Positions 1,086 to 21,996 of a DNA stretch of 64,000 bases are shown in pieces; position 1 is the first letter of the stretch; each line of letters opens with the position of its first letter. A program made the translations under genes and the position numbers. Source of the stretch: a virus; IMG/VR virus record IMGVR_UViG_3300017963_000208, positions 3,601 to 67,600 of that record; one strand, 5' to 3'. The notes beneath the pieces are model-generated. The model had not been told where the DNA came from, ran no database searches, and saw nothing but the letters and a program-made list of their open reading frames with translations.

Positions 1086-1366
1086 ATTAATTCGCTCTTG
1101 TCAAATTCTTTTTTTACCTTATTTATCATACGGTTAAACTGCATTGTACGGATCGTATCTAGTCGATAATCGGTTAAGCACTCAACCTCTATTTGGTATA
1201 ACAAAGGAGGATTGTTCAGAAAAACTCTGGCTAAATGCTCACTTATATCATCCCCCACTGTCAATACATACATTTTATTTTCTTTTTCTGTCTCGGGTAG
1301 AGAGTAGAGAAATCGTACTTCCCACGATCTTTTCTCTGGCAAAATTCTGTAAACATTTACAATCAC
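1049..1366 (-). CDS. Hypothetical protein (internal DTIRTM resembles the family motif)
   Basis: GTG start overlapping the upstream stop; YRLDTIRTMQ. Confidence 0.6.
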   Translation of the reverse strand: MIVNVYRILPEKRSWEVRFLYSLPETEKENKMYVLTVGDDISEHLARVFLNNPPLLYQIEVECLTDYRLDTIRTMQFNRMINKVKKEFDKSELIWYDQLIGRKKQ

Positions 1367-1836
1367 TTAGCCCACCCCGGTCTCTGTCTATTAGTCCACT
1401 GTGGCTTTCTCTTATCATTTTCCCACTTGTCTTTTAGACATAATCTGTAAGCCTTGAATATATTGAGCTCTTTTTTGAATTTAGTACAGTTAGGAAACAT
1501 AGTGATTTCATTAGACTCTGGCATGAACGCATAGCCGGCATAGAAAATCTCCAAATATTGCTTACACTTATGTGTTTTACCGTAACGAAAGTTATACTCA
1601 TCGCACAAGGCTCTGAAATGGTTTAATAACCACAGGTAGTTAGCTGCGTTAGTCCTTGTCCAGATTGCACAAGGATGGTTGACATGAGTGGGGCGATAGG
1701 GAGCATTAGTAGCCCCCATAACGTGCATAGCGGTAGAGAGCAACTGAGCAGATTCTAGACACATTTTGATCACTCGCTTGTTGTCCAGTACTCTAGCTGA
1801 CTTGTGAGCGTCTAAATATGTAACAAAGATGTTCAC
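1363..1836 (-). CDS. Pyrimidine dimer DNA glycosylase / endonuclease V-like protein
   Basis: MNIF..LD...DNKRVIKMCLESAQLLST and THVNHPCAIW motifs typical of the DenV-like family. Confidence 0.8.
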   Translation of the reverse strand: MNIFVTYLDAHKSARVLDNKRVIKMCLESAQLLSTAMHVMGATNAPYRPTHVNHPCAIWTRTNAANYLWLLNHFRALCDEYNFRYGKTHKCKQYLEIFYAGYAFMPESNEITMFPNCTKFKKELNIFKAYRLCLKDKWENDKRKPQWTNRQRPGWAK

Positions 1837-2795: not shown

Positions 2796-3351
2796 CTTCT
2801 AGACTCTTTTCTAATTTCTCCATGTTCTCTTCCGTGGCGTATTTAAAAGGAAACTTAGCCCACAAACGTACTGGATGGTACTGCTCACCACTGCTAGACT
2901 TCTTGCCAACCTTCATATTGGCGAATCTCTCACGCTTTGGGAGCTTTTTAGTGTTGAACCCTTTGTAGACCTCTAACACTTCCTTATCTAGGTCGATCAC
3001 GTAAGCGTATTCACAGAATAGAGAATCAGCAACAAAATCAATAGAGTTACATAAATCTCTAACATTACCACGACTTATCATTGATAGGATATCAGCAGCA
3101 GTATCTCTGCTAAATTCTGGGTACTTGGTGGGCCAAGCATCTCCTACTTTGTCAACTATTGCCTGTATATCCGCGTCCGATAGAAAGCTGCACTCCCTAA
3201 CTGACCACCGGAAATCCTCTAGATCCATTTCATTTTGTATAAAATCACAAATAGTTGCGCCCTGTCCAGTAGGGTATCCATCCCATTGCCCGTACTGAGC
3301 AACTTTGATCTTACCATCACAAACTACAGCGGTAATGTTCCTAGTTCCCAT
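2788..3351 (-). CDS. Conserved phage hypothetical protein (MGTR...Y.QWDGYP type)
   Basis: MGTRN start, YGQWDGYP motif, CEYAYVIDLD motif; a pattern recognised from many phage hypothetical proteins. Confidence 0.7.
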   Translation of the reverse strand: MGTRNITAVVCDGKIKVAQYGQWDGYPTGQGATICDFIQNEMDLEDFRWSVRECSFLSDADIQAIVDKVGDAWPTKYPEFSRDTAADILSMISRGNVRDLCNSIDFVADSLFCEYAYVIDLDKEVLEVYKGFNTKKLPKRERFANMKVGKKSSSGEQYHPVRLWAKFPFKYATEENMEKLEKSLEDE

Positions 3352-3562
3352 TGTTTTTCCTCCACCCTTTTGGAATTTTTCTAGAAGTTTTATCTCTGTT
3401 ATTGTATAGAGAGATAGGGAATAAAATCAACGTCATAAAAAATCCAGCAATTATTTGGCGAGTATAATACCAATCTAACATCCTATTCCACTTAGGAATG
3501 GACAGCCCCAACCAAGCCCCGAAACCTACCAACAACCAACTAATTAACAGTAACTTAACCAT
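3341..3562 (-). CDS. Small membrane protein (two hydrophobic segments)
   Basis: LLLISWLLVGFGAWLGL and IIAGFFMTLILFPISLY. Confidence 0.65.
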   Translation of the reverse strand: MVKLLLISWLLVGFGAWLGLSIPKWNRMLDWYYTRQIIAGFFMTLILFPISLYNNRDKTSRKIPKGWRKNNGN

Positions 3563-3770
3563 TTTTCCTCCCCTTCATATAACTTATTGTTTCTAAACGT
3601 AATTCATCCTCAAGGAAAAATAGTGAACAGTCCTCTAAGTAATACATATTAAAAGGTTTTCCAACTCTTTTGGATGATCTCTCTAACACAACCCCACGTA
3701 CAACTATGCCCTTATATTTCTCTTTGGCAATAACCTTATCACCTATTTTAAATTTATACTTATTTTTCAC
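3555..3770 (-). CDS. SH3/KOW-like small protein, conserved C-terminal motif family
   Basis: KFKIGDKV; C-terminal ELRLETISYMKGRK. Confidence 0.8.
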   Translation of the reverse strand: MKNKYKFKIGDKVIAKEKYKGIVVRGVVLERSSKRVGKPFNMYYLEDCSLFFLEDELRLETISYMKGRKNG

Positions 3771-3996
3771 GAATTGTATCCTTTTTATGTTTCAGAGTGG
3801 TAATAATATCTAATCCTGTTATTTCTCCCGGAAGCATTTTAATAGGGCTTGTCCAATGTTGCTTCTCTGGCAAAAACACACTGACCCTGTAAAATACTGT
3901 GTACTCACCGTGTTCTACCCCAGTAATATAGCCACTGAAGGTGTCACCGTACTTCACTATCACAAAATCCCCTTGTTTATATTCAGATTTAGTCAT
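3760..3996 (-). CDS. SH3/KOW-like small protein, conserved C-terminal motif family
   Basis: EYKQGDFV; C-terminal DIITTLKHKK. Confidence 0.75.
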   Translation of the reverse strand: MTKSEYKQGDFVIVKYGDTFSGYITGVEHGEYTVFYRVSVFLPEKQHWTSPIKMLPGEITGLDIITTLKHKKDTIREK

Positions 3997-4151
3997 GGTT
4001 AGTTGTGCCTTTCATATCTTGTACCACCCTTTTTCCACGATTTAGGCCCTTTTTAGTCCTGTGTTTTTCATTGCTTTCTCCGCCGGCCATATATGACCAT
4101 ACGTGACCATATATGGTAGGTATGCCACTATATATGACATGACACTATACC

Positions 4152-4225
4152 TGCAAGCGCCATGCCAACCTAAGCCGGCTTGCATAAAGCGTGCCAAAGC
4201 TAGAGCTCTTGCAAGGTCCGTGCCA
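4152..4225 (-). promoter_or_regulatory. Three tandem sigma54-type (-24/-12) boxes at 29-bp intervals
   Basis: Minus strand TGGCATGGCGCTTGCA (4152-4167), TGGCACGCTTTATGCA (4181-4196), TGGCACGGACCTTGCA (4210-4225); all GG-N10-GC. Confidence 0.75.
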
Positions 4226-4312
4226 AGGTCAACCTAATGGCCTAACACTAAACCGCTAGGCCTAACCCTACCCTAACACGGTAACACGTACCCTTGCCAC
4301 TCCCTATAAATA

Positions 4313-4364
4313 ATTATATAGGGGAATTTTACCCCTTGCAATTGTCAATAAATAGTGTTATGAT
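4313..4364. promoter_or_regulatory. Divergent sigma70-type promoter pair sharing a palindromic -35
   Basis: TTGCAA at 4336-4341; plus-strand TATGAT at 4359-4364 (17-bp spacer, TGn extension); minus-strand TATAAT at 4318-4313 (17-bp spacer). Confidence 0.65.
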
Positions 4365-4403
4365 CAAAAGACACAAGCAAAAGACTAATGAAAGGGGTAA
4401 GTT

Positions 4404-5282
4404 ATGAGCCAGAAAGTTTTTGAAATCGTAACCAATAGGATAATTGACCAATTAGAACAAGGGGTTATACCATGGCGCAAGCCTTGGAAAAATTCCCGCC
4501 CACCGTGTAACCTGCTTTCTGGCAAGCCTTACAGGGGCATTAATGCCCTTGTATGCTTTCTAACTACCTTTAAAGAGGGGTTTAGTTCACCATTTTGGTT
4601 GACGTTTAAACAAGCCAAGCGGTTAGGCGGTAGTGTCAAGAAAGGCGAAAAGGGCACTCCTATTGTATTCTGGAAGTGGATCAACGGCACTGATAAGGAT
4701 ACAGGCAGGGAAAAAACCTTTCCTTGTGTCCGATATTATACCGCTTTTAACCTGGATCAATGCGAAAACATACCAGAAAGCAAAATTCCACAAGACAAAG
4801 GCCTTGATTTCAAACCGATTGAACAGGCGGAAAAACTTGTTTCAGAATGGTTAGGCAAGCCTGAAATCAGGCATAGCGGCAATATGGCCTGTTATTCCCC
4901 CGCGCTAGATTTCATTAACCTACCGGACCCTAACCGCTTTAAATCGGTTGAGGGGTATTATTCCACCTTGTTTCACGAATTGACGCATAGCACTGGCCAC
5001 CCTAACCGCTTAGGTAGGTTTGAACAAAACGCGGTTAATGGTTTTGGCTCTGATAGCTATAGCAAAGAGGAGCTGATAGCAGAAATTGGCGCGGCTCTGT
5101 TATGTATGCAATGCGGAATTGATAGCGCGGACCTACACCAAAACCAAGCGGCTTACGTGCAAAACTGGTTAAGGGCTCTTAAAGATGATAGGCGCTTGCT
5201 AGTCAATGCGGGACAAGCGGCACAAAAAGCGGTTGACCTTATCAACGGCACCAAACATAAGAAAGGGCCTAGCAATGAATAA
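4404..5282 (+). CDS. ardC: ArdC-like ssDNA-binding antirestriction protein (DUF1738 plus zincin-like domain)
   Basis: GVIPWRKPW, YRGIN, WLTFKQA..LGGSVKKGEKG, YYSTLFHELTHSTGH..RL.R, YSKEEL.AE.GAA.LC motifs. Confidence 0.9.
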   Translation: MSQKVFEIVTNRIIDQLEQGVIPWRKPWKNSRPPCNLLSGKPYRGINALVCFLTTFKEGFSSPFWLTFKQAKRLGGSVKKGEKGTPIVFWKWINGTDKDTGREKTFPCVRYYTAFNLDQCENIPESKIPQDKGLDFKPIEQAEKLVSEWLGKPEIRHSGNMACYSPALDFINLPDPNRFKSVEGYYSTLFHELTHSTGHPNRLGRFEQNAVNGFGSDSYSKEELIAEIGAALLCMQCGIDSADLHQNQAAYVQNWLRALKDDRRLLVNAGQAAQKAVDLINGTKHKKGPSNE

Positions 5283-5466
5283 AGATAGCTGGATCGAGGC
5301 AAGGGAAAATCTACTAATGGAAAGGGTTAACTCTTTAGAGGCAAAGCTAAACCGTTGTCTTGAACAATGGGAAATTGACGCTATAGAGGATAGCCTAACC
5401 GAAAACGATATAGTTAACGAGTATAGCGCCATGGTTGATTATACTTTTGAACTATTGAGGGGGTAA
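5275..5466 (+). CDS. Hypothetical protein (likely start MNKDSW)
   Basis: ORF track 5206-5466; ATG at 5275 overlaps the ardC end with a GGG-rich RBS. Confidence 0.6.
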   Translation: MNKDSWIEARENLLMERVNSLEAKLNRCLEQWEIDAIEDSLTENDIVNEYSAMVDYTFELLRG

Positions 5467-5468
5467 CA

Positions 5469-6200
5469 ATGATTAAACTAAGCCACAATAACAAAAAGGT
5501 TAGTAAGTTAGACGCGGTTAGTTTTGGTATTCAGGCCTTTGCTATCCCCTTTGATATCCTGAAAATGTTTATCAACCGCTTGCCTATTGATACCGAGGCA
5601 AAGCTAGGGGCCTTTGAAAACGTCCACCTTGAGACAAAGCAAAAGACCATTGACAATCAAACCCATTGCCTAACTTGCCCTAGTGCGGGCGCTTGCGGCT
5701 CTGTATGCTATGCCTTGCAAGGGTCCTATAGGTGGAATGTAGTTAAAGCGGCTAGGGCCTGGAATACCGCTTGCACTTTTCTTGATAACTTTGCTTTTCA
5801 TATGACTAAGGCATTGACAAAGGTTAAAAGGCCTATTGTCCGGATACATGATAGCGGCGATTTTTATTCGCTCCGCTACTTCCAGCAATGGGTTAAGGTT
5901 GCAAAGGCCTTGCCGCAAAAGACGTTCTATGCCTATACCAAAAGCCTAATATTTGTCGATTTCAATGCTTTGCCTGATAACTTCAAACTGGTACAATCCC
6001 AAGGGGGAAAACATGACCACTTGTTAAACCCCCTAAAGCCTATAGCGCGTATATTTGAAAGCAGGGAGGCCCTAGAAAAAGCTGGTTTCACCTATGGCAA
6101 TGAAAATGATCTACCAGCAATTCAGGGGGTAAAGCGTATAGGCCTAGTGTACCACGGCACCAAAAAACTAACAGACCAACAAAGGCAATATTTCAAATAG
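5469..6200 (+). CDS. Gp88-like phage protein (Cys cluster, radical-SAM-like motifs)
   Basis: TCPSAGACGSVCYALQG, IVRIHDSGDFYS, FYAYTKS. Confidence 0.75.
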   Translation: MIKLSHNNKKVSKLDAVSFGIQAFAIPFDILKMFINRLPIDTEAKLGAFENVHLETKQKTIDNQTHCLTCPSAGACGSVCYALQGSYRWNVVKAARAWNTACTFLDNFAFHMTKALTKVKRPIVRIHDSGDFYSLRYFQQWVKVAKALPQKTFYAYTKSLIFVDFNALPDNFKLVQSQGGKHDHLLNPLKPIARIFESREALEKAGFTYGNENDLPAIQGVKRIGLVYHGTKKLTDQQRQYFK

Positions 6201-6211
6201 GAGTTAACCCC

Positions 6212-6493
6212 ATGAAAAACAAAAAACGCGGACCATATATTGACAACAAAGCAGAGCGGCAAGCTTTCTACCGTGACGCGCAATGGAATAAAAACTATAG
6301 AGAGCAAAACCGTTGCAAGGCTAGTGATAACCAACCTACCGCTTCACCTATGCAAAAACCGCCTATGCCATGTAGTCAATGCGGCGGTAAAGTAGTCAAG
6401 GGCCTGTTTAGGTACGCTTGCCCTACTTGCCACCCTTTCCACTTCCAAAAATGCGGTATATGCGGTGCAAAGCGCCTTTGGTGTTGCTGCTAG
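6212..6493 (+). CDS. Cys-rich Zn-finger hypothetical protein
   Basis: CSQCG, CPTC, CGICG...WCCC; RBS AGGAG. Confidence 0.6.
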   Translation: MKNKKRGPYIDNKAERQAFYRDAQWNKNYREQNRCKASDNQPTASPMQKPPMPCSQCGGKVVKGLFRYACPTCHPFHFQKCGICGAKRLWCCC

Positions 6494-6523
6494 GCCTTTA
6501 CCCCTTTAGCCTAGTTAGCAGCT

Positions 6524-6562
6524 AAGGCCCCTAGTTATTGCTTGGCTAGGGGCCTTTCTTTA
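6524..6562 (+). terminator. Rho-independent terminator of the ardC operon
   Basis: AAGGCCCCTAG/CTAGGGGCCTT 11-bp stem followed by TCTTTA. Confidence 0.75.
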
Positions 6563-6756
6563 TGATTTCAACCACTTAAATGTTGCTCAGATTGCTTTCT
6601 AAGGGCCTTAAATGGTCTTAGGTATGCTAGGGTACCAGGGGCCTTGAAAAAATCGCTTACAAGCCAAAATAGAGAGCCATAGGACTAGCGGCAAGGCAAA
6701 GGAAAGGGGGTTAAGCATTGCACCTAACCCCCTAGTGTAAAGCAAAGCGGCTAAGG

Positions 6757-6858
6757 CTAATAACCAGCCTTGACTATACGCTTTGCCCTAGTCAAATTGT
6801 TGCGGCGTAGCCTGATAACCACTAGCCAATGTTTCAACCTATCAATCAACCTTTGCAT
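6757..6858 (-). CDS. Very small basic protein (33 aa)
   Basis: MQRLIDRLKHWLVVIRLRRNNLTRAKRIVKAGY*; GGGGG RBS just after the upstream stop. Confidence 0.4.
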   Translation of the reverse strand: MQRLIDRLKHWLVVIRLRRNNLTRAKRIVKAGY

Positions 6859-6867
6859 GGTTTCCCC

Positions 6868-7029
6868 CTAGTCCTGCCTTACGATAACCCTACGCTTGCC
6901 ATTGATAGTCACGATATCAAGGCGCTTGCTAGGCTTGTTTGACTGGTTATCGCTTGCCTTGTCTTTGTCTTGTTTCCTGATAACCTTCGCTTTGTCGCTG
7001 GTTATGATTATTAGGCCTTGTTTGCTCAT
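6868..7029 (-). CDS. Small basic protein (53 aa)
   Basis: MSKQGLIIITSDKAKVIRK...RVIVRQD*; AAGGGG RBS; directly downstream of a strong sigma70 promoter. Confidence 0.55.
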   Translation of the reverse strand: MSKQGLIIITSDKAKVIRKQDKDKASDNQSNKPSKRLDIVTINGKRRVIVRQD

Positions 7030-7061
7030 TGTCTAACCCCTTTGTTTGTCGGTATACTTCG

Positions 7062-7089
7062 ATCATACCAGAAAAAGGGAAAATGTCAA
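7062..7089 (-). promoter_or_regulatory. sigma70-type promoter
   Basis: Minus strand TTGACA-16 bp-TATGAT with TGn extension. Confidence 0.65.
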
Positions 7090-7098
7090 TAAAAACTA

Positions 7099-7128
7099 TT
7101 TAACTATGTATAAGTAGCCACCTATAAT
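7099..7128 (+). promoter_or_regulatory. Phage-specific promoter motif copy 1
   Basis: TTTAACTATGTATAAGTA then TATAAT 6 bp later; upstream of 7143. Confidence 0.7.
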
Positions 7129-7142
7129 AGGGAGTAAAAAAC

Positions 7143-7631
7143 ATGAGTGAAAATAAACTAGAGAAAATCAGGCAACATATTGAAAACACAGTGGGCTTGC
7201 ATAAATTTCTTGATAATTTCTTAGCCAATTTCAAGCGGGAATGTAAAAGAGAAGAAAGAGAGCGCAATAAGTGGCTGAAAAAACAAAGCAGCAAGCCGCA
7301 AAAGCCTTGGACTGGAAAGGCCTTTCAAGCTAGGTTTACCTATGCCAAAAAACAAGCTAGGGAGAGAAGCATTAAATGGACCTTAACAGATAAACAGTAT
7401 TATCAATTGGTTGAAAAGGCTTTATGTTCCTATTGCGGTTACCCCTTAGCAGGTAAAGGAGTGGAATTAGATCGAATAAATAGCAAAGGCATATATGAAA
7501 CAAACAACGTAACCCCCTGTTGTGGTCTATGTAACATGACTAAGGCGCGGGATAAATTTAGTTATAGAGAGATGTTAGACCATATAGGTCCATCCATATC
7601 GAAAGTCAAATACCTACGTGATAAAAAATAG
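7143..7631 (+). CDS. HNH-like (CxxC..DR..N..CxxCN) endonuclease with N-terminal coiled coil
   Basis: CSYCG...ELDRINSKGIYETNNVTPCCGLCNMTK. Confidence 0.75.
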   Translation: MSENKLEKIRQHIENTVGLHKFLDNFLANFKRECKREERERNKWLKKQSSKPQKPWTGKAFQARFTYAKKQARERSIKWTLTDKQYYQLVEKALCSYCGYPLAGKGVELDRINSKGIYETNNVTPCCGLCNMTKARDKFSYREMLDHIGPSISKVKYLRDKK

Positions 7632-7994
7632 TCAAATGAACATTTTGCCCTATTTCCATTAATCTAATAATATCCACAACATACCTACAATACAAAATAC
7701 CCGTGTAATCTACCTACTTAGTGAATATTAAAGGGAAATTTAGTTTTCCCTTTCGAGAGCTCGTCTATGGCATAAAATGCGTTAACTTTTGCCGGCAACG
7801 GCCGGCCAATTAAGGGGCTTTATTCCAGGCGGGACAAGCAAAGGCCTAGCAGGTAGATCAAACCCCCCTTACAAGCCAAATAAGAGCCCTATAGGTATAC
7901 ATATAGAGCCCTATACAGGCCTAGTTAGTTATTGGGTTACATACAGATAAGGTTAGGTGGTTAGTTATTGGGGTAGTAGGGTGGAAATACGGGT

Positions 7995-8485
7995 TGCAAG
8001 ACCCATGCCAACTCTCTATATATCTCAGAATAATTATACCCCTTACCCTATATATACCCCTATATAGGTATATATTGACTACCCTATATGACACTATATG
8101 GCTATCAGTGCTATTAGCCCGCCCCTGCAAGACCTATACCACCATATACGTAACTATAGTTACTAATATATACCCATATATTAATAAATCAGTGTATTTA
8201 TAACTATTGATTATTATGTGATTAAATGCTGGTACTCCACCGATAGAGTAAGCAAGATATATACCAACATAATGGCATAGATATTGAATGGCTATGCAAC
8301 CTTTGTGCCAGAGCTCGCGGGCCTAGATAGAGAACTATAGTTACCCAATGCAATTAATATACCAATGTAGTTATATAGAATGGTACATATATTGCAATAA
8401 ATTAAAATGACCATATATGGATATACATGTATATAGGGGTATGGTAATGTAAAGGGGTACGGTGCTATATGCAAAGACCGTGCCA
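7995..8485. promoter_or_regulatory. Second cluster of sigma54-type boxes
   Basis: Minus: 7995-8010, 8126-8141, 8251-8266, 8295-8310, 8349-8364, 8470-8485; plus: 8381-8396 (and imperfect 8273-8288); TGG(C/T)A(C/T)-N5-TTGC(A/T). Confidence 0.65.
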
Positions 8486-8713
8486 TGGCTCCATCCGGTA
8501 AATCACACACAAACCTAATTTAACCAACTGAACAAATATTCATACTCTATATGGGTCATAAAATAACCCAATTAAGGAATCTATTTGGGTCATTGAGAGA
8601 AGTACCAAAAACCGAGGGGAACAAATATTCAAACCCAGTAAAAATAATCATGAAGAAAAACCCAATGATTTCAAGACTAGGTTAAAACTAGAGTGCTTTT
8701 CGTATAATTATTA

Positions 8714-8743
8714 TTTAACTATGTATAAGTACGCTACTATAAG
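8714..8743 (+). promoter_or_regulatory. Phage-specific promoter motif copy 2
   Basis: TTTAACTATGTATAAGTA then TATAAG 6 bp later; upstream of 8764. Confidence 0.7.
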
Positions 8744-8763
8744 TAGAGGGGGAAAATAAGAAC

Positions 8764-9051
8764 ATGAGAGACTTAATAGATAAAGCTGACCATATATTGA
8801 GAAATAGTCATAGATTTAACGTGGGAGATAAGGTTAAATTTAGAATATCAGATGAAGCTGGAGCTAGAATAGTAAGGGGCAAAGTGCGGCGTGTAGAGAT
8901 AAATTATTTGTGGTCTGGTGTCTATGAAATAGAATTAGATAACCCCTGGGATAAGATATACAAGGACGAGGCTCCTAGAAATACTATGATGATAAGAGAG
9001 GACGTACTCACATTGGATACTTTAGACTATATGAGAAAGAATAAGAAATGA
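8764..9051 (+). CDS. SH3/KOW-like small protein, conserved C-terminal motif family
   Basis: RFNVGDKV; C-terminal DTLDYMRKNKK. Confidence 0.8.
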   Translation: MRDLIDKADHILRNSHRFNVGDKVKFRISDEAGARIVRGKVRRVEINYLWSGVYEIELDNPWDKIYKDEAPRNTMMIREDVLTLDTLDYMRKNKK

Positions 9052-13038: not shown

Positions 13039-13589
13039 TGTCAAACAAGAAAAAAAGTGTAAAAGTTCTTGAAAATATTGCTGATGCTAAGGAAGAGGCA
13101 GCAAAAAGACGCTTAAAAGGGCTTTCGAAAGACGGTTGGAGTGTTATTCAGCTATTTTTACAAGAAATTCAGGCGAATGACCTAGTTTCAGAGGTAGTAG
13201 GTGGAACTAAAGTTACTCTTACTAACCAAATTGAGGCTCTAAAGGAACGTATTCAGTTCGAATTTGAAGACGACGAAGAGGTTAAAAAGTTAATTATGGC
13301 TAATTTCCCCACCTATAACACTATTCGTAGGTGGACCAAGGCTCAAGGTTGGCAGGATGCTGTCTATGGTAGCATTAAGTATGCCAATTTATTTGATAAT
13401 TACCATAAGGCTAAAGTTATTGACGGCGTGTATAGAAAAGCTACGGCTGATGGACGCCAGGATATGAAAGCTGCGGAGCTTTATTTCAAAATTGAGGCCG
13501 ATGTATTTGGTAAAAATAAAGATAAGGGGTCTGAGAGCTTGCAGGATGAGCTCACTAATGTGGTCTTGGGGAAAAAGAAGTCTAAGTAA
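13038..13589 (+). CDS. Putative terminase small subunit (phBC6A51-like HTH)
   Basis: Immediately before terL; TIRRW..W.D.V...KVIDGVYRKAT..D.KAAELYFK pattern. Confidence 0.55.
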   Translation: MSNKKKSVKVLENIADAKEEAAKRRLKGLSKDGWSVIQLFLQEIQANDLVSEVVGGTKVTLTNQIEALKERIQFEFEDDEEVKKLIMANFPTYNTIRRWTKAQGWQDAVYGSIKYANLFDNYHKAKVIDGVYRKATADGRQDMKAAELYFKIEADVFGKNKDKGSESLQDELTNVVLGKKKSK

Positions 13590-13598
13590 GGATAGGGA

Positions 13599-15092
13599 AT
13601 GGAAGCCTACGTAGAGTATGGTGAACCTTTAAAATTACACGAACTTCACATAGAAGAGCTTGTAAAAACACTGGAAAAAAAGGGTGTTAAGTTAGTTAGT
13701 TCTAAAATAGGACCCCTAACTCCTAAGCAATCTCTTATATGTAAGGACGAAGCAAGATTTAAGGTAGTGGCCTGTGGACGTAGGTTTGGCAAGTCTATGC
13801 TGTGTACACTTATCGCTCTGGCTGTGTTGTTACAGCCGGGACGAAAGGTGTGGGTAGTAGCTAAAGACTATGGACTCACAGATAGGGTGTTCAAGGAACT
13901 CTATCATTTGGTGGTTAATGAACTAAAACTCGCTAAGAGTAAGTCCATGTATCACCGTTTCGTAACCTTGAAGAATGGAAGTGAGTTTAGAGGCAAATCT
14001 TGCACCAACAGAACCTCCTTGGTTGGTGATGCCGTAGACCTTATAATTTGGGATGAGGCTGCTCTAGAAGAGCAAGCAGAAGATATATGGAACCAGGAGC
14101 TTCGGCCCTGTCTAACTGACCGTAAAGGGTCGGCTATCTTCATTTCTACCCCCAGAGGTCGTAATCACTTCTATGAATGGTATAGATTAGGTAAGAAAGG
14201 GGAATTACTACGTAAAGCCCTGGAAGGCTCTGATACGGAACTTACTGAAGAGGAAGTGGCCTTGTCAGACTGGTCTTCATATAAGTTTACCTCTTATGCC
14301 AATACCATTGAAGAAGGAGGATATTTAGATAGAGCTGAGATTGATGCGGCTAGGCTGACCCTACCGCCGCTGAAATTTAAGCAGGAATATCTGGCAGATT
14401 TTACGGCTGTTTCAAATAGGTCCTTTCCAGAATTCGACTTTGACGTACAAATTGTCGATGAAGATTTTGGAGGGCATATTATTCAGCCGCATAATCCAGA
14501 AGTCTTCGCCAGTATGGATTTCAACTACTCTACCCCCTGTACCACTCTGTATGCTCAGATGGATGGGAGCCTAAATGTTTTTATCTTTGATGAGTTTGTG
14601 CCCAAAGAAGCACAGACTACTGTTCATGCCCAGGCTAAACAGCTTCTGGAAATAGATAAACAGTTAGGCGGAGTAATCCACACAGTAGTAGCTGATATCG
14701 CTGGGAAACAAAAAGACTTGGCTGGAAGAAGTGCTTGGGATGATTTAGCTTCTTGGGGCATTCATCCTACGGGTAGAAAGCAGCGGATAGAAACAGGATG
14801 TGATTTAATCCGTCTTTGGTGTAGATATCCTGTTGTAGATGATAATGGAAAGATACTATTTGAAGAAGACGGAATAACTCCAGTAACTTATCCAAAATTA
14901 TTTGTACATAGTAGGTGTGAAAACCTTATTTACGCTTTAGAAACTGCTACAGCACAAGAAACACAAAATGGAATTCTGAAGGAAGGGTATAAAAAGGACG
15001 GAAAGACAGACGGACCTTTGGACGCTCTCAGGTACTTATTGGTGTATTTGCTCCATGATTCAGGATATGTTGGAGCCATTCCGGTAATTTAA
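13599..15092 (+). CDS. terL: Terminase large subunit
   Basis: Walker A GRRFGKS, Walker B LIIWDEAA, ISTP coupling motif, RNaseH-like SMDF and D..DALRY. Confidence 0.95.
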   Translation: MEAYVEYGEPLKLHELHIEELVKTLEKKGVKLVSSKIGPLTPKQSLICKDEARFKVVACGRRFGKSMLCTLIALAVLLQPGRKVWVVAKDYGLTDRVFKELYHLVVNELKLAKSKSMYHRFVTLKNGSEFRGKSCTNRTSLVGDAVDLIIWDEAALEEQAEDIWNQELRPCLTDRKGSAIFISTPRGRNHFYEWYRLGKKGELLRKALEGSDTELTEEEVALSDWSSYKFTSYANTIEEGGYLDRAEIDAARLTLPPLKFKQEYLADFTAVSNRSFPEFDFDVQIVDEDFGGHIIQPHNPEVFASMDFNYSTPCTTLYAQMDGSLNVFIFDEFVPKEAQTTVHAQAKQLLEIDKQLGGVIHTVVADIAGKQKDLAGRSAWDDLASWGIHPTGRKQRIETGCDLIRLWCRYPVVDDNGKILFEEDGITPVTYPKLFVHSRCENLIYALETATAQETQNGILKEGYKKDGKTDGPLDALRYLLVYLLHDSGYVGAIPVI

Positions 15093-20628: not shown

Positions 20629-21996
20629 ATGGCACAAGTTGTTACTCTTTCCGAAGCTGCAAAACTTTCGAACAACCTTCTGGTCGAGGGCATTATCGAG
20701 GATATCGTAACGGTTGATGACTGGTATCAGTACCTTCCGTTCGTGGTGTTTGAAGGCTTAGCCTACACTTTCACCCGTGAAGCGACCCTCGCTAAAGCCG
20801 ATTTTGCGGCTCCTGGCACTTCCCTTGCTGCTACTAAGTTTCAAGGTGGTGCAACGTTCCAAAATGTGAACGTGAACCTAGCGGCCATCATTGGCGACAT
20901 CATTCTCGATGGTCAAATCGAGGATCAACTCAGCGACCATAATGATCAGCTTCAGGTGCAAATTTCTTCCAAAGCGAAGCAGATTGCACGTATCTATATG
21001 AACGCGATCATCAACGGTCGTAGAATTCCTGGTGGCGCTCTGACTCAGGCCAATAGTGGTCCTATCGGCATCGAAGCCAAATTCGACGGCATGAAGAGAA
21101 TTCTTGAAGCCGAAGCTGGCAACGTCGATGACGTCAACCATCCTTTCTATAACGCCGGTGCGTCTACTCAGACCTTGGCTCTCGTTGAAGATGATGCTTC
21201 GTCTTCGCGTGTTGGTCGTCCAGGTCGTGTGTTCTCACTTGAAGATTTGGACAATCTGATTGACCGTGTTACGGTTGGTCGTCCTGACTTCTTGATGATG
21301 AACGCTCGTGAGATTCGGACGCTGCGTGTCCTCTTAAGGAACACCGGTGGTGGTACGGATGCGTATCAAATCCAACAGCAGGGTCTTGGTAACATGAAGC
21401 CTATGCTTTATTATCAAGATATTCCTATTTTCCGGAATGACTTCATTTCGAAAGAAGACGGTGTCAACCTGGTTGATACTGGTGCTGTTGCGGCAGTTGG
21501 TGCTACGAGCATTACTACGGCTGAAGACTACAGTGTTGCCGTTCCCCAGGCTCTCCTGGATGGTATCGCTGCTGGTACGGCTGAAGTCCGTGTTCGTGAC
21601 GACGACGCTATCCTTCGTCGCTGGAAAGTTACGAATGCCACTGGAGCTAACCCTTCAGTGCTAACCGTGACGGCGACTGGGCAGTTCCTAGATGTCGAGA
21701 ACAACCGCGTGGAAAGCGTGTTGGCTCCTGACGACGCAGCCTTGAGTCTCGTGGCTGAAACCTATGAGATTTTTGAGAGAGCTGACGGCTCTACCGTTTA
21801 CGCTGGTAAATGGGGTGAGTACGAAGGCGTCGTGGGCTTTACATCCGCTCAAAACGCTGGTCTTAAGCTTGAGTATGTCGGTCCTCGTGAAGATGAGAAC
21901 GCCTATCAGTATCGCCTTAAATGGTACTGTGGTTTCGACCTTTACAACCGTCTCGCTCTTGCTAGGGCTAAAGACGTTCTGCCGCTGGGTGCTTAA
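20629..21996 (+). CDS. Major capsid protein (HK97 fold) with an inserted domain
   Basis: LSEAAKL..GIIE.I...LPF...EG.AY.F.RE, Q.Q...KAK.IAR, YQDIP.F.NDFI, YRLKWYCG; strongly biased high-expression codon usage. Confidence 0.9.
   Translation: MAQVVTLSEAAKLSNNLLVEGIIEDIVTVDDWYQYLPFVVFEGLAYTFTREATLAKADFAAPGTSLAATKFQGGATFQNVNVNLAAIIGDIILDGQIEDQLSDHNDQLQVQISSKAKQIARIYMNAIINGRRIPGGALTQANSGPIGIEAKFDGMKRILEAEAGNVDDVNHPFYNAGASTQTLALVEDDASSSRVGRPGRVFSLEDLDNLIDRVTVGRPDFLMMNAREIRTLRVLLRNTGGGTDAYQIQQQGLGNMKPMLYYQDIPIFRNDFISKEDGVNLVDTGAVAAVGATSITTAEDYSVAVPQALLDGIAAGTAEVRVRDDDAILRRWKVTNATGANPSVLTVTATGQFLDVENNRVESVLAPDDAALSLVAETYEIFERADGSTVYAGKWGEYEGVVGFTSAQNAGLKLEYVGPREDENAYQYRLKWYCGFDLYNRLALARAKDVLPLGA

Follow-up and report, generated by a model that had tools for sequence, protein, structure and literature searches.

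Of all bacterial promoter classes, only sigma-54 promoters are silent without an ATP-driven activator. Their classical consensus is mrNrYTGGCACGrNNNTTGCW, and the footprint of the closed complex is roughly 26–29 bp, i.e., about the distance at which the boxes described below are packed. In bacteria each of these promoters consists of one site, served by an enhancer close by and by its own AAA+ activator. They are hardly known from phages. Phage T7 has the tandem early promoters A1, A2 and A3, which are of the sigma-70 type, are separated by more than 100 bp and need no activator. The iterons of plasmid and phage origins, such as λ ori, are another kind of repeated site; they are read by an initiator that the element itself encodes, and they differ between elements.

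A search of the literature turned up one documented case of a phage using a sigma-54 promoter, that of Pseudomonas phage YuA. The passage of PMC10914365 that cites Ceyssens et al. 2008 reports a sigma-54-like promoter, P015, and a sigma-70-like promoter, P014, both backed by a promoter trap and mapping of transcription start sites. No description of sigma-54 box arrays in phages was found in a literature search whose limited coverage makes it no proof of novelty. The locus analysed here carries such an array.

The three-box array of region A

The array lies in an uncultured phage genome, a 107,565-bp IMG/VR virus record with a completeness estimated by CheckV at 94%. The window, i.e., the whole 64,000-bp stretch that was analysed, comprises bases 3601–67600 of this record, and coordinates are those of the window unless the genome is named. 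The phage is a novel myovirus. The genes for the large terminase (13599–15092) and the major head protein (20629–21996) belong to a long rightward block, as do sheath and baseplate genes. A nucleotide search of phage isolates with the box region gave no match, and the best isolate match of the sheath protein is 29% identical, so that no cultured relative was found. Contigs from the same metagenomes were strain variants only.

From 3996 to the left end of the genome, genes run leftward; between 4404 and about 62.7 kb of the window they are rightward, and past that point leftward once more. The leftward small-gene operon, from 3996 down to about 70, opens with a run of small family-less genes, the first of which (3760–3996, minus strand) encodes 78 aa of no known family; it also contains a Pyr_excise-like gene of 157 aa (1363–1836, minus strand). 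To the right of region A are ArdC-like, GP88-family and HNH endonuclease genes. The GP88-family (PF17338) gene (5469–6200, plus strand) sits between the two box clusters of this phage, regions A and B, on the strand opposite to the boxes. The HNH endonuclease gene (7143–7631), located between the GP88 region and region B, has the look of a mobile insertion; a variant co-occurring in the same metagenomes skips 6845–7988.

Region A is the 407-bp gap between divergent genes. Its boxes are all on the minus strand: box 1, TGGCACGGACCTTGCA, at 4225–4210, is the furthest upstream in the direction of transcription, followed by box 2, TGGCACGCTTTATGCA, at 4196–4181, and box 3, TGGCATGGCGCTTGCA, at 4167–4152. 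The preliminary description had placed three minus-strand boxes with GG-N10-GC spacing at 4152, 4181 and 4210, facing the gene cluster on the left, and all of this was found again. The three share the consensus TGGCAYG-N4-WTGCA with GG-N10-GC in each, they lie 156 bp upstream of the first leftward gene (ATG at 3996), and they are in sense with the leftward small-gene operon. Their left ends (4210, 4181 and 4152 in plus-strand numbering) give a period of exactly 29 bp. A T precedes every box, extending the shared motif to TTGGCAYG. The DNA between the boxes is unrelated from one to the next, so simple tandem repetition does not describe region A.

A leftward sigma-70-like promoter, TTGCAA-17-TATAAT (4341–4313, minus strand; 10 of 12 matches), is found about 80 bp upstream of box 1, and a weaker equivalent is present in L122, the related contig used for comparison below. 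A rightward one, TTGCAA-17-TATGAT (4336–4364, plus strand), heads towards the ArdC-like gene, and the two have one −35 hexamer in common. The leftward −10 is overlapped by an inverted repeat, CCCTATA-N8-TATAGGG (4302–4323). A CCCCTATATA word is common to both box clusters, occurring in a related form at 4302–4323 in region A and at 8046–8075 in region B. Immediately downstream of the region A boxes are the palindromes CCATATATGA and CCATATATGG (4087–4116). The perfect CCATATATGG palindrome has only two copies in the 64 kb, at 4107–4116 and 8411–8420, each adjoining a box cluster. A second regulator may bind at the CCATATATGG palindromes and the CCCCTATATA word, or these may be candidates for an enhancer. 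The leader before the first leftward gene (3997–4080, minus strand, about 85 nt) is about 95% identical to that of L122, versus about 45% for the box region. It has no significant RNA fold (z = −0.64), and an Rfam search of 3300–9000 returned nothing credible.

The assignment of the boxes to the RpoN −24/−12 consensus, made in the preliminary description, stands at the level of sequence. In all three boxes of region A, GG at −25/−24 and GC at −13/−12 are separated by 10 bp within TGGCAC-N5-TTGCW. A logo was made from 514 boxes of the listed viral arrays (see below) and was read only at positions left free by the search pattern. At these positions, −31 to −29 are rich in A and −28 in G, −27 is T or C in 83%, −20 is G in 70% and A in 25%, −19 is a purine in 77%, and −10 is T or A. 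The ChIP-supported Salmonella sites of PMC3844500 have, by our count, G at −20 in 19 of 29 and A in 10 of 29. The preferences of the extended consensus, i.e., a pyrimidine at −27, G or A at −20, a purine at −19 and A or T at −11/−10, are all present and agree with these Salmonella sites. The identity of the boxes as sigma-54-type sites, in fine detail, is thus well supported by their sequence.

Our best explanation, held tentatively and at slightly less than an even chance, is that the boxes form a promoter cluster of the host sigma-54 polymerase that serves the leftward operon beside its sigma-70 promoter. They would be docking sites for the host sigma-54 (RpoN) holoenzyme, making up a close-packed, enhancer-dependent cluster that works in tandem with the sigma-70 promoter on the small-gene operon. 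The closed complexes would be opened by a host activator or by an unrecognised phage activator, and transcription is predicted to start about 12 nt past each GC, near 4199, 4170 and 4141. Several adjoining sites may favour the capture of scarce holoenzyme.

Selection on the box cores and the second cluster

The preliminary description had proposed a scan of the full genome with RpoN motifs. In the 107,565 bp, the strict pattern TGGCAY-N5-WTGCW has 8 matches against 0.34–0.36 expected, and these are biased to one strand and clustered: seven are on the minus strand, and six fall in two non-coding tracts, regions A and B. Two exact boxes are isolated: the first (13371–13386, minus strand) precedes the terminase gene by about 210 bp, and the second (20814–20829, plus strand) is within the major head gene; these may be chance matches or weak internal sites.

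Region B, the second cluster (7995–8485, mainly minus strand), is within a 1.1-kb non-coding tract. Its minus-strand boxes are at 7995–8010, 8126–8141, 8251–8266, 8295–8310, 8349–8364 and 8470–8485, and its single plus-strand box is at 8381–8396; four TGGTAY variants, TGGTAT among them, are included. These boxes do not precede a transcription unit in sense orientation. They aim away from the nearest genes, towards plus-strand genes and a terminator-like hairpin (7912–7883, minus strand) about 85 nt downstream of the final box, so a leftward transcript from that box would be only about 100 nt long.

The direction of the region B boxes speaks for another role, namely that sigma-54, free or as holoenzyme, binds the boxes and no transcription follows. 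The bound sites would then be a silent-complex decoy, a barrier between divergent units, or a roadblock. In the decoy version, closed complexes would titrate sigma-54 off host stress or defence operons. The position of the region A boxes, downstream of a sigma-70 promoter, is a further point in favour of binding of this kind. Taking the evidence given below into account, we regard such a role as quite unlikely.

The comparison of region A rests on one relative, L122, a metagenome contig with an ArdC-like protein of 86% identity; the contigs of the close IMG/VR relatives (L009/L017, L018 and L019) stop short of region A. L122 has three minus-strand boxes as well, spaced 19 and 28 bp apart, with TGGCACGCTTTTTGCT as the counterpart of box 2 and TGGCATGGTTATTGCA as that of box 3. 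In box 1 the core is invariant while five of the five internal spacer bases differ. Over the three boxes, all 24 core bases (TGGCA + TGC) are unchanged, while the internal spacers differ at 8 of 15 bases (Fisher p = 1e-4 against the core) and the flanks at 80 of 146 columns (p = 5e-8 against the core). The degenerate Y and W positions show four changes, all inside the allowed class. Region B, which is kept in L009 and L122, has one change at 48 core positions versus 106 at 455 non-box columns. That sole core change, TGGTAT to TGGCAT, is towards the consensus and is present in natural variants too. Cores that stay unchanged amid changed spacers and flanks are evidence that strong purifying selection acts on precisely the −24/−12 core bases that define sigma-54 sites. 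The exact 29-bp periodicity, emphasised in the preliminary description, is real in this phage but is not conserved, given the 19 and 28 bp of L122.

These numbers bear on the view that the boxes have no function and arose by chance or are left over from neutral repeats. Eight boxes where 0.36 are expected, and cores that are invariant inside a region otherwise about 55% diverged, make such a view very improbable. Evidence on it from other viruses, on both sides, is given next.

Arrays in other viral genomes

Viral contigs were scanned for two strict boxes 3–33 bp apart, and this two-box pattern was found in at least 120 viral stretches; a scrambled, composition-matched control gave 20 single hits in viral contigs, which also tells against chance. 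A three-box pattern with a box spacing of 24–30 bp was found in at least 118 viral contigs. In 596 Gb of bacterial and archaeal genomes, it matched 16 stretches, mostly trivial 15- or 30-bp tandem repeats; about five of these are genuine arrays, all in MAG contigs. Three-box arrays are a wide, virus-specific feature, almost absent from cellular genomes.

Among the matches listed there are 109 distinct viral arrays, 81 of them with three boxes, at loci of 28–66% GC. Neutral repeats would account for the 14 of these 109 arrays in which all internal spacers are identical, i.e., recent tandem duplications such as that in L372 (2478–2549), which consists of three identical 28-bp units and suggests that arrays can expand by recent tandem duplication. 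They would not account for the 59 listed arrays in which every internal spacer is different.

Same-strand spacing in the listed viral arrays peaks at 26–29 bp (counts of 116, 73, 63 and 56), with 11 cases at 24 bp and 9 at 30 bp. The 29-bp period of region A is a local case of this general packing rule. At double-spaced gaps, a test for decayed boxes gave scores no better than the null. Neighbours on opposite strands also keep fixed offsets in the listed arrays, 21 bp when convergent and 26 bp when divergent. One phage family (L210, L223, L233, L244, L269 and L277) has interleaved plus and minus boxes with a 47-bp period, alternating the convergent 21-bp and divergent 26-bp offsets. This interleaved lattice is hard to reconcile with ordinary promoters, and the existence of interleaved convergent and divergent boxes is consistent with binding that is not followed by transcription.

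In L275 (2760–2870 and 4500–4610), box pairs 26 bp apart recur between small genes and aim away from them, and two CTGCCATTTTGGCAG hairpins, which contain TGGCA and have T-runs, directly follow each pair. In other phages some boxes are antisense to adjacent genes or directed at hairpins, and in L264 the distances from box to start codon show no consistent pattern. L264 also gave a lead to Aeromonas phage LAh_7, in which no boxes are present. L332, in a 383-kb Chitinophagales contig, was considered as a possible prophage that would give a link to a host, and was dropped, as none of eight ORFs checked has a PHROG match. By eye, the array is about 20–105 bp from a contig end in about 10 of the 41 full-length contigs listed (e.g., L299, L344, L347, L363, L365, L380, L388 and L403), which far exceeds what uniform placement would give; two contigs of relatives of the present phage, L009 and L018, start near region A and within region B, respectively. 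Array positions near contig ends may be due to assembly breaks where arrays vary or to true ends of genomes.

Complete genomes of 43–46 kb have exactly one array and essentially no further box, and in larger array-bearing genomes the boxes are restricted to one region. One dense array per genome, packed at 26–29 bp, would suit sites that merely hold sigma-54. Origins and packaging sites, too, usually occupy one locus in a genome, and this raises the question of whether sigma-54 reads the boxes at all. Their reader might instead be a phage regulator or initiator, with the boxes as operator or iterons, origin or packaging signal, or it might be another host factor; the likeness to sigma-54 sites would then be coincidence or mimicry. 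Fixed-spacing direct repeats do look like iterons, AT-rich palindromes flank the arrays, and in L243 (1716–1766) two perfect DnaA boxes (TGTGGATAA) lie within the array of sigma-54 boxes, a hint that array region and replication origin overlap in some phages. In the window, AT-rich palindromes are present at the arrays. The nearest 18 kb contain no DnaA box, and replication genes do not adjoin the arrays, the DNA polymerase A gene lying far away at 80.9–83.0 kb of the genome.

In the largest clade the array is about 280 bp from a gene for a 130-aa protein that heads an endolysin-TerL-portal module, a position that could suit a packaging signal. Searches of Pfam, PHROG and PDB with this 130-aa protein gave no match, and no homologue of its family is found near the window's arrays (first 13 kb); the idea of a TerS and packaging site was therefore rejected for this clade.

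Where a phage encodes the binding protein, protein and site normally diverge in step. The arrays behave otherwise, in that one motif is kept over phages of 28–66% GC sharing no DNA-binding protein, and its match to sigma-54 sites reaches positions that the search pattern left free. Seven complete or near-complete array-bearing genomes (34–107 kb, GC 34–57%) were compared. A family-A DNA polymerase is present in all seven, and a metallophosphatase and a dUTPase are shared by subsets. No DNA-binding protein is common to the seven, as a cognate protein of iterons or operators would be, and so a common phage-encoded reader is not indicated. The sigma-54 DNA-binding domain (PF04552) was found in four of the five MAGs with genuine arrays, although binning is imperfect. 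With no common DNA-binding protein of the phages and with the sigma-54 domain in four of five MAGs, the most economical view is that the reader would be a conserved host factor. A reader other than sigma-54 is, on balance, unlikely.

The genes beside the arrays are also informative. The arrays aim in sense at a small-gene operon, repeatedly one with GP88 and Pyr_excise-like genes. GP88-family genes are downstream and on the same strand in 15 of 22 array loci, and Pyr_excise-like genes in 13 of 14. The packaging module (130-aa ORF, M15 endolysin, TerL and portal) is upstream and divergent in 63–65 loci. This steady sense orientation to a conserved operon would not be needed by a pure decoy. Moreover, three or four sites per genome would make a weak sponge for sigma-54 unless the copy number of the genome is high.

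Sigma-70-like promoters, with a background rate of 9 in 324, occur in sense downstream of the array in 19 of 84 arrays, mostly 150–250 bp off, and in antisense upstream of it in 25 of 84. The general picture, as far as sequence tells, is of an array placed between divergent sigma-70 promoters and in tandem with the sense one, a layout that fits a conditional second promoter class for the same operon. The order seen in the window, with a sense sigma-70 promoter upstream of the array, occurs in 3 of 84 arrays. The preliminary description had suggested that the boxes act as roadblocks to the leftward sigma-70 transcript. The geometry of this window does fit such a role, but since arrays are mostly upstream of the sense sigma-70 promoter or behind the divergent one, blocking cannot be their general role.

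The preliminary description had also remarked that no gene for a bacterial enhancer-binding protein is visible in the window, and the remark can be extended to the whole record. A domain search of the 107,565-bp genome (an estimated 94% complete) found no Sigma54_activat (PF00158), Sigma54_activ_2 (PF14532) or Sigma54_DBD (PF04552) domain. The Sigma54_activat domain is likewise absent from 25 further array-bearing records, and an activator gene in none of 26 records is what sites that bind sigma-54 silently would lead one to expect. Near the region A boxes there is no recognisable enhancer site, the palindromes at 4302–4323 and 4087–4116 being candidates only.

The case for the promoter cluster proposed above is made by sequence identity with sigma-54 sites, the clustering of eight boxes where 0.36 are expected, selection on the cores, sense orientation, and membership in a virus-specific class. 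Against it are the lack of an activator in the 26 array-bearing records and of a recognisable enhancer. Boxes aimed at hairpins or away from genes, in region B and L275, are hard to square with simple promoters, and convergent box pairs just 21 bp apart are awkward for them. In addition, a spacing of 26–29 bp would set each predicted start at the edge of the next box, and it follows that neighbouring sites could not all fire simultaneously. Because of the hairpin-facing boxes, the 21-bp pairs and the overlap with start sites, binding of sigma-54 alone and a reader other than sigma-54 both stay alive as rivals to the promoter cluster.

Meaning of the arrays and comparison with known systems

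Beyond this phage, close-packed sigma-54 docking arrays may be an undescribed, phage-specific class of element that captures the host sigma-54 polymerase, a proposal that is possible yet doubtful. Typically a genome would have one such element, usually of three boxes at a spacing of 26–29 bp, within the control region that separates divergent operons. If the proposal is true, such an element could be a private transcription channel, opened by a host activator that infection triggers or by an unrecognised, non-AAA+ phage factor; alternatively, it could be a sponge that disables sigma-54-dependent responses of the host.

Dense arrays in many unrelated phages, with no activator in those checked, point to an unstudied way of engaging host RNA polymerase, since the arrays are widespread in phages, activator-less and near-absent from cells. 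Early expression could be tied to host physiology or to the stress of infection, there could be a new kind of activator, or sigma-54 could be sequestered. The preliminary description had likewise suggested that the phage may tie its early expression to the state of sigma-54 and its enhancer-binding proteins in the host, or may titrate sigma-54. The arrays could also mark early control regions of uncultured phages and indicate rpoN in the host. The involvement of sigma-54 can be tested by standard biochemistry and reporters even without the natural host.

Among known systems, T7 A1–A3, three co-directional promoters for host polymerase that head an early region of small genes, resemble the arrangement proposed for region A. 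Unlike them, the boxes here are of the sigma-54 type, are 29 bp apart, and are expected to be silent without an activator. Iterons resemble the arrays as several fixed-spacing direct repeats at one locus per genome, beside AT-rich DNA; unlike iterons, the arrays keep the same host-type motif among phages that have no common DNA-binding protein.

The bacterial sigma-54 promoters (glnA, pspA, hypA, and the Salmonella set of PMC3844500) have the same bipartite TGGCAYG-N4-TTGCW with GG-N10-GC. Preferences at flanking and internal positions are alike, and region A likewise aims at a downstream operon. The phage array differs from them in having three sites 29 bp apart, with neither an activator gene nor a recognisable enhancer found.

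A pattern scan of YuA revealed no array and two one-mismatch sites only, fewer than in the reversed control. YuA has a single promoter of this type, and both its host and the activity of the promoter are known. The combination of a sigma-54-type with a sigma-70-type promoter in a phage that relies on host RNA polymerase, as related for YuA in that passage of PMC10914365, is nevertheless a precedent for the arrangement proposed here.
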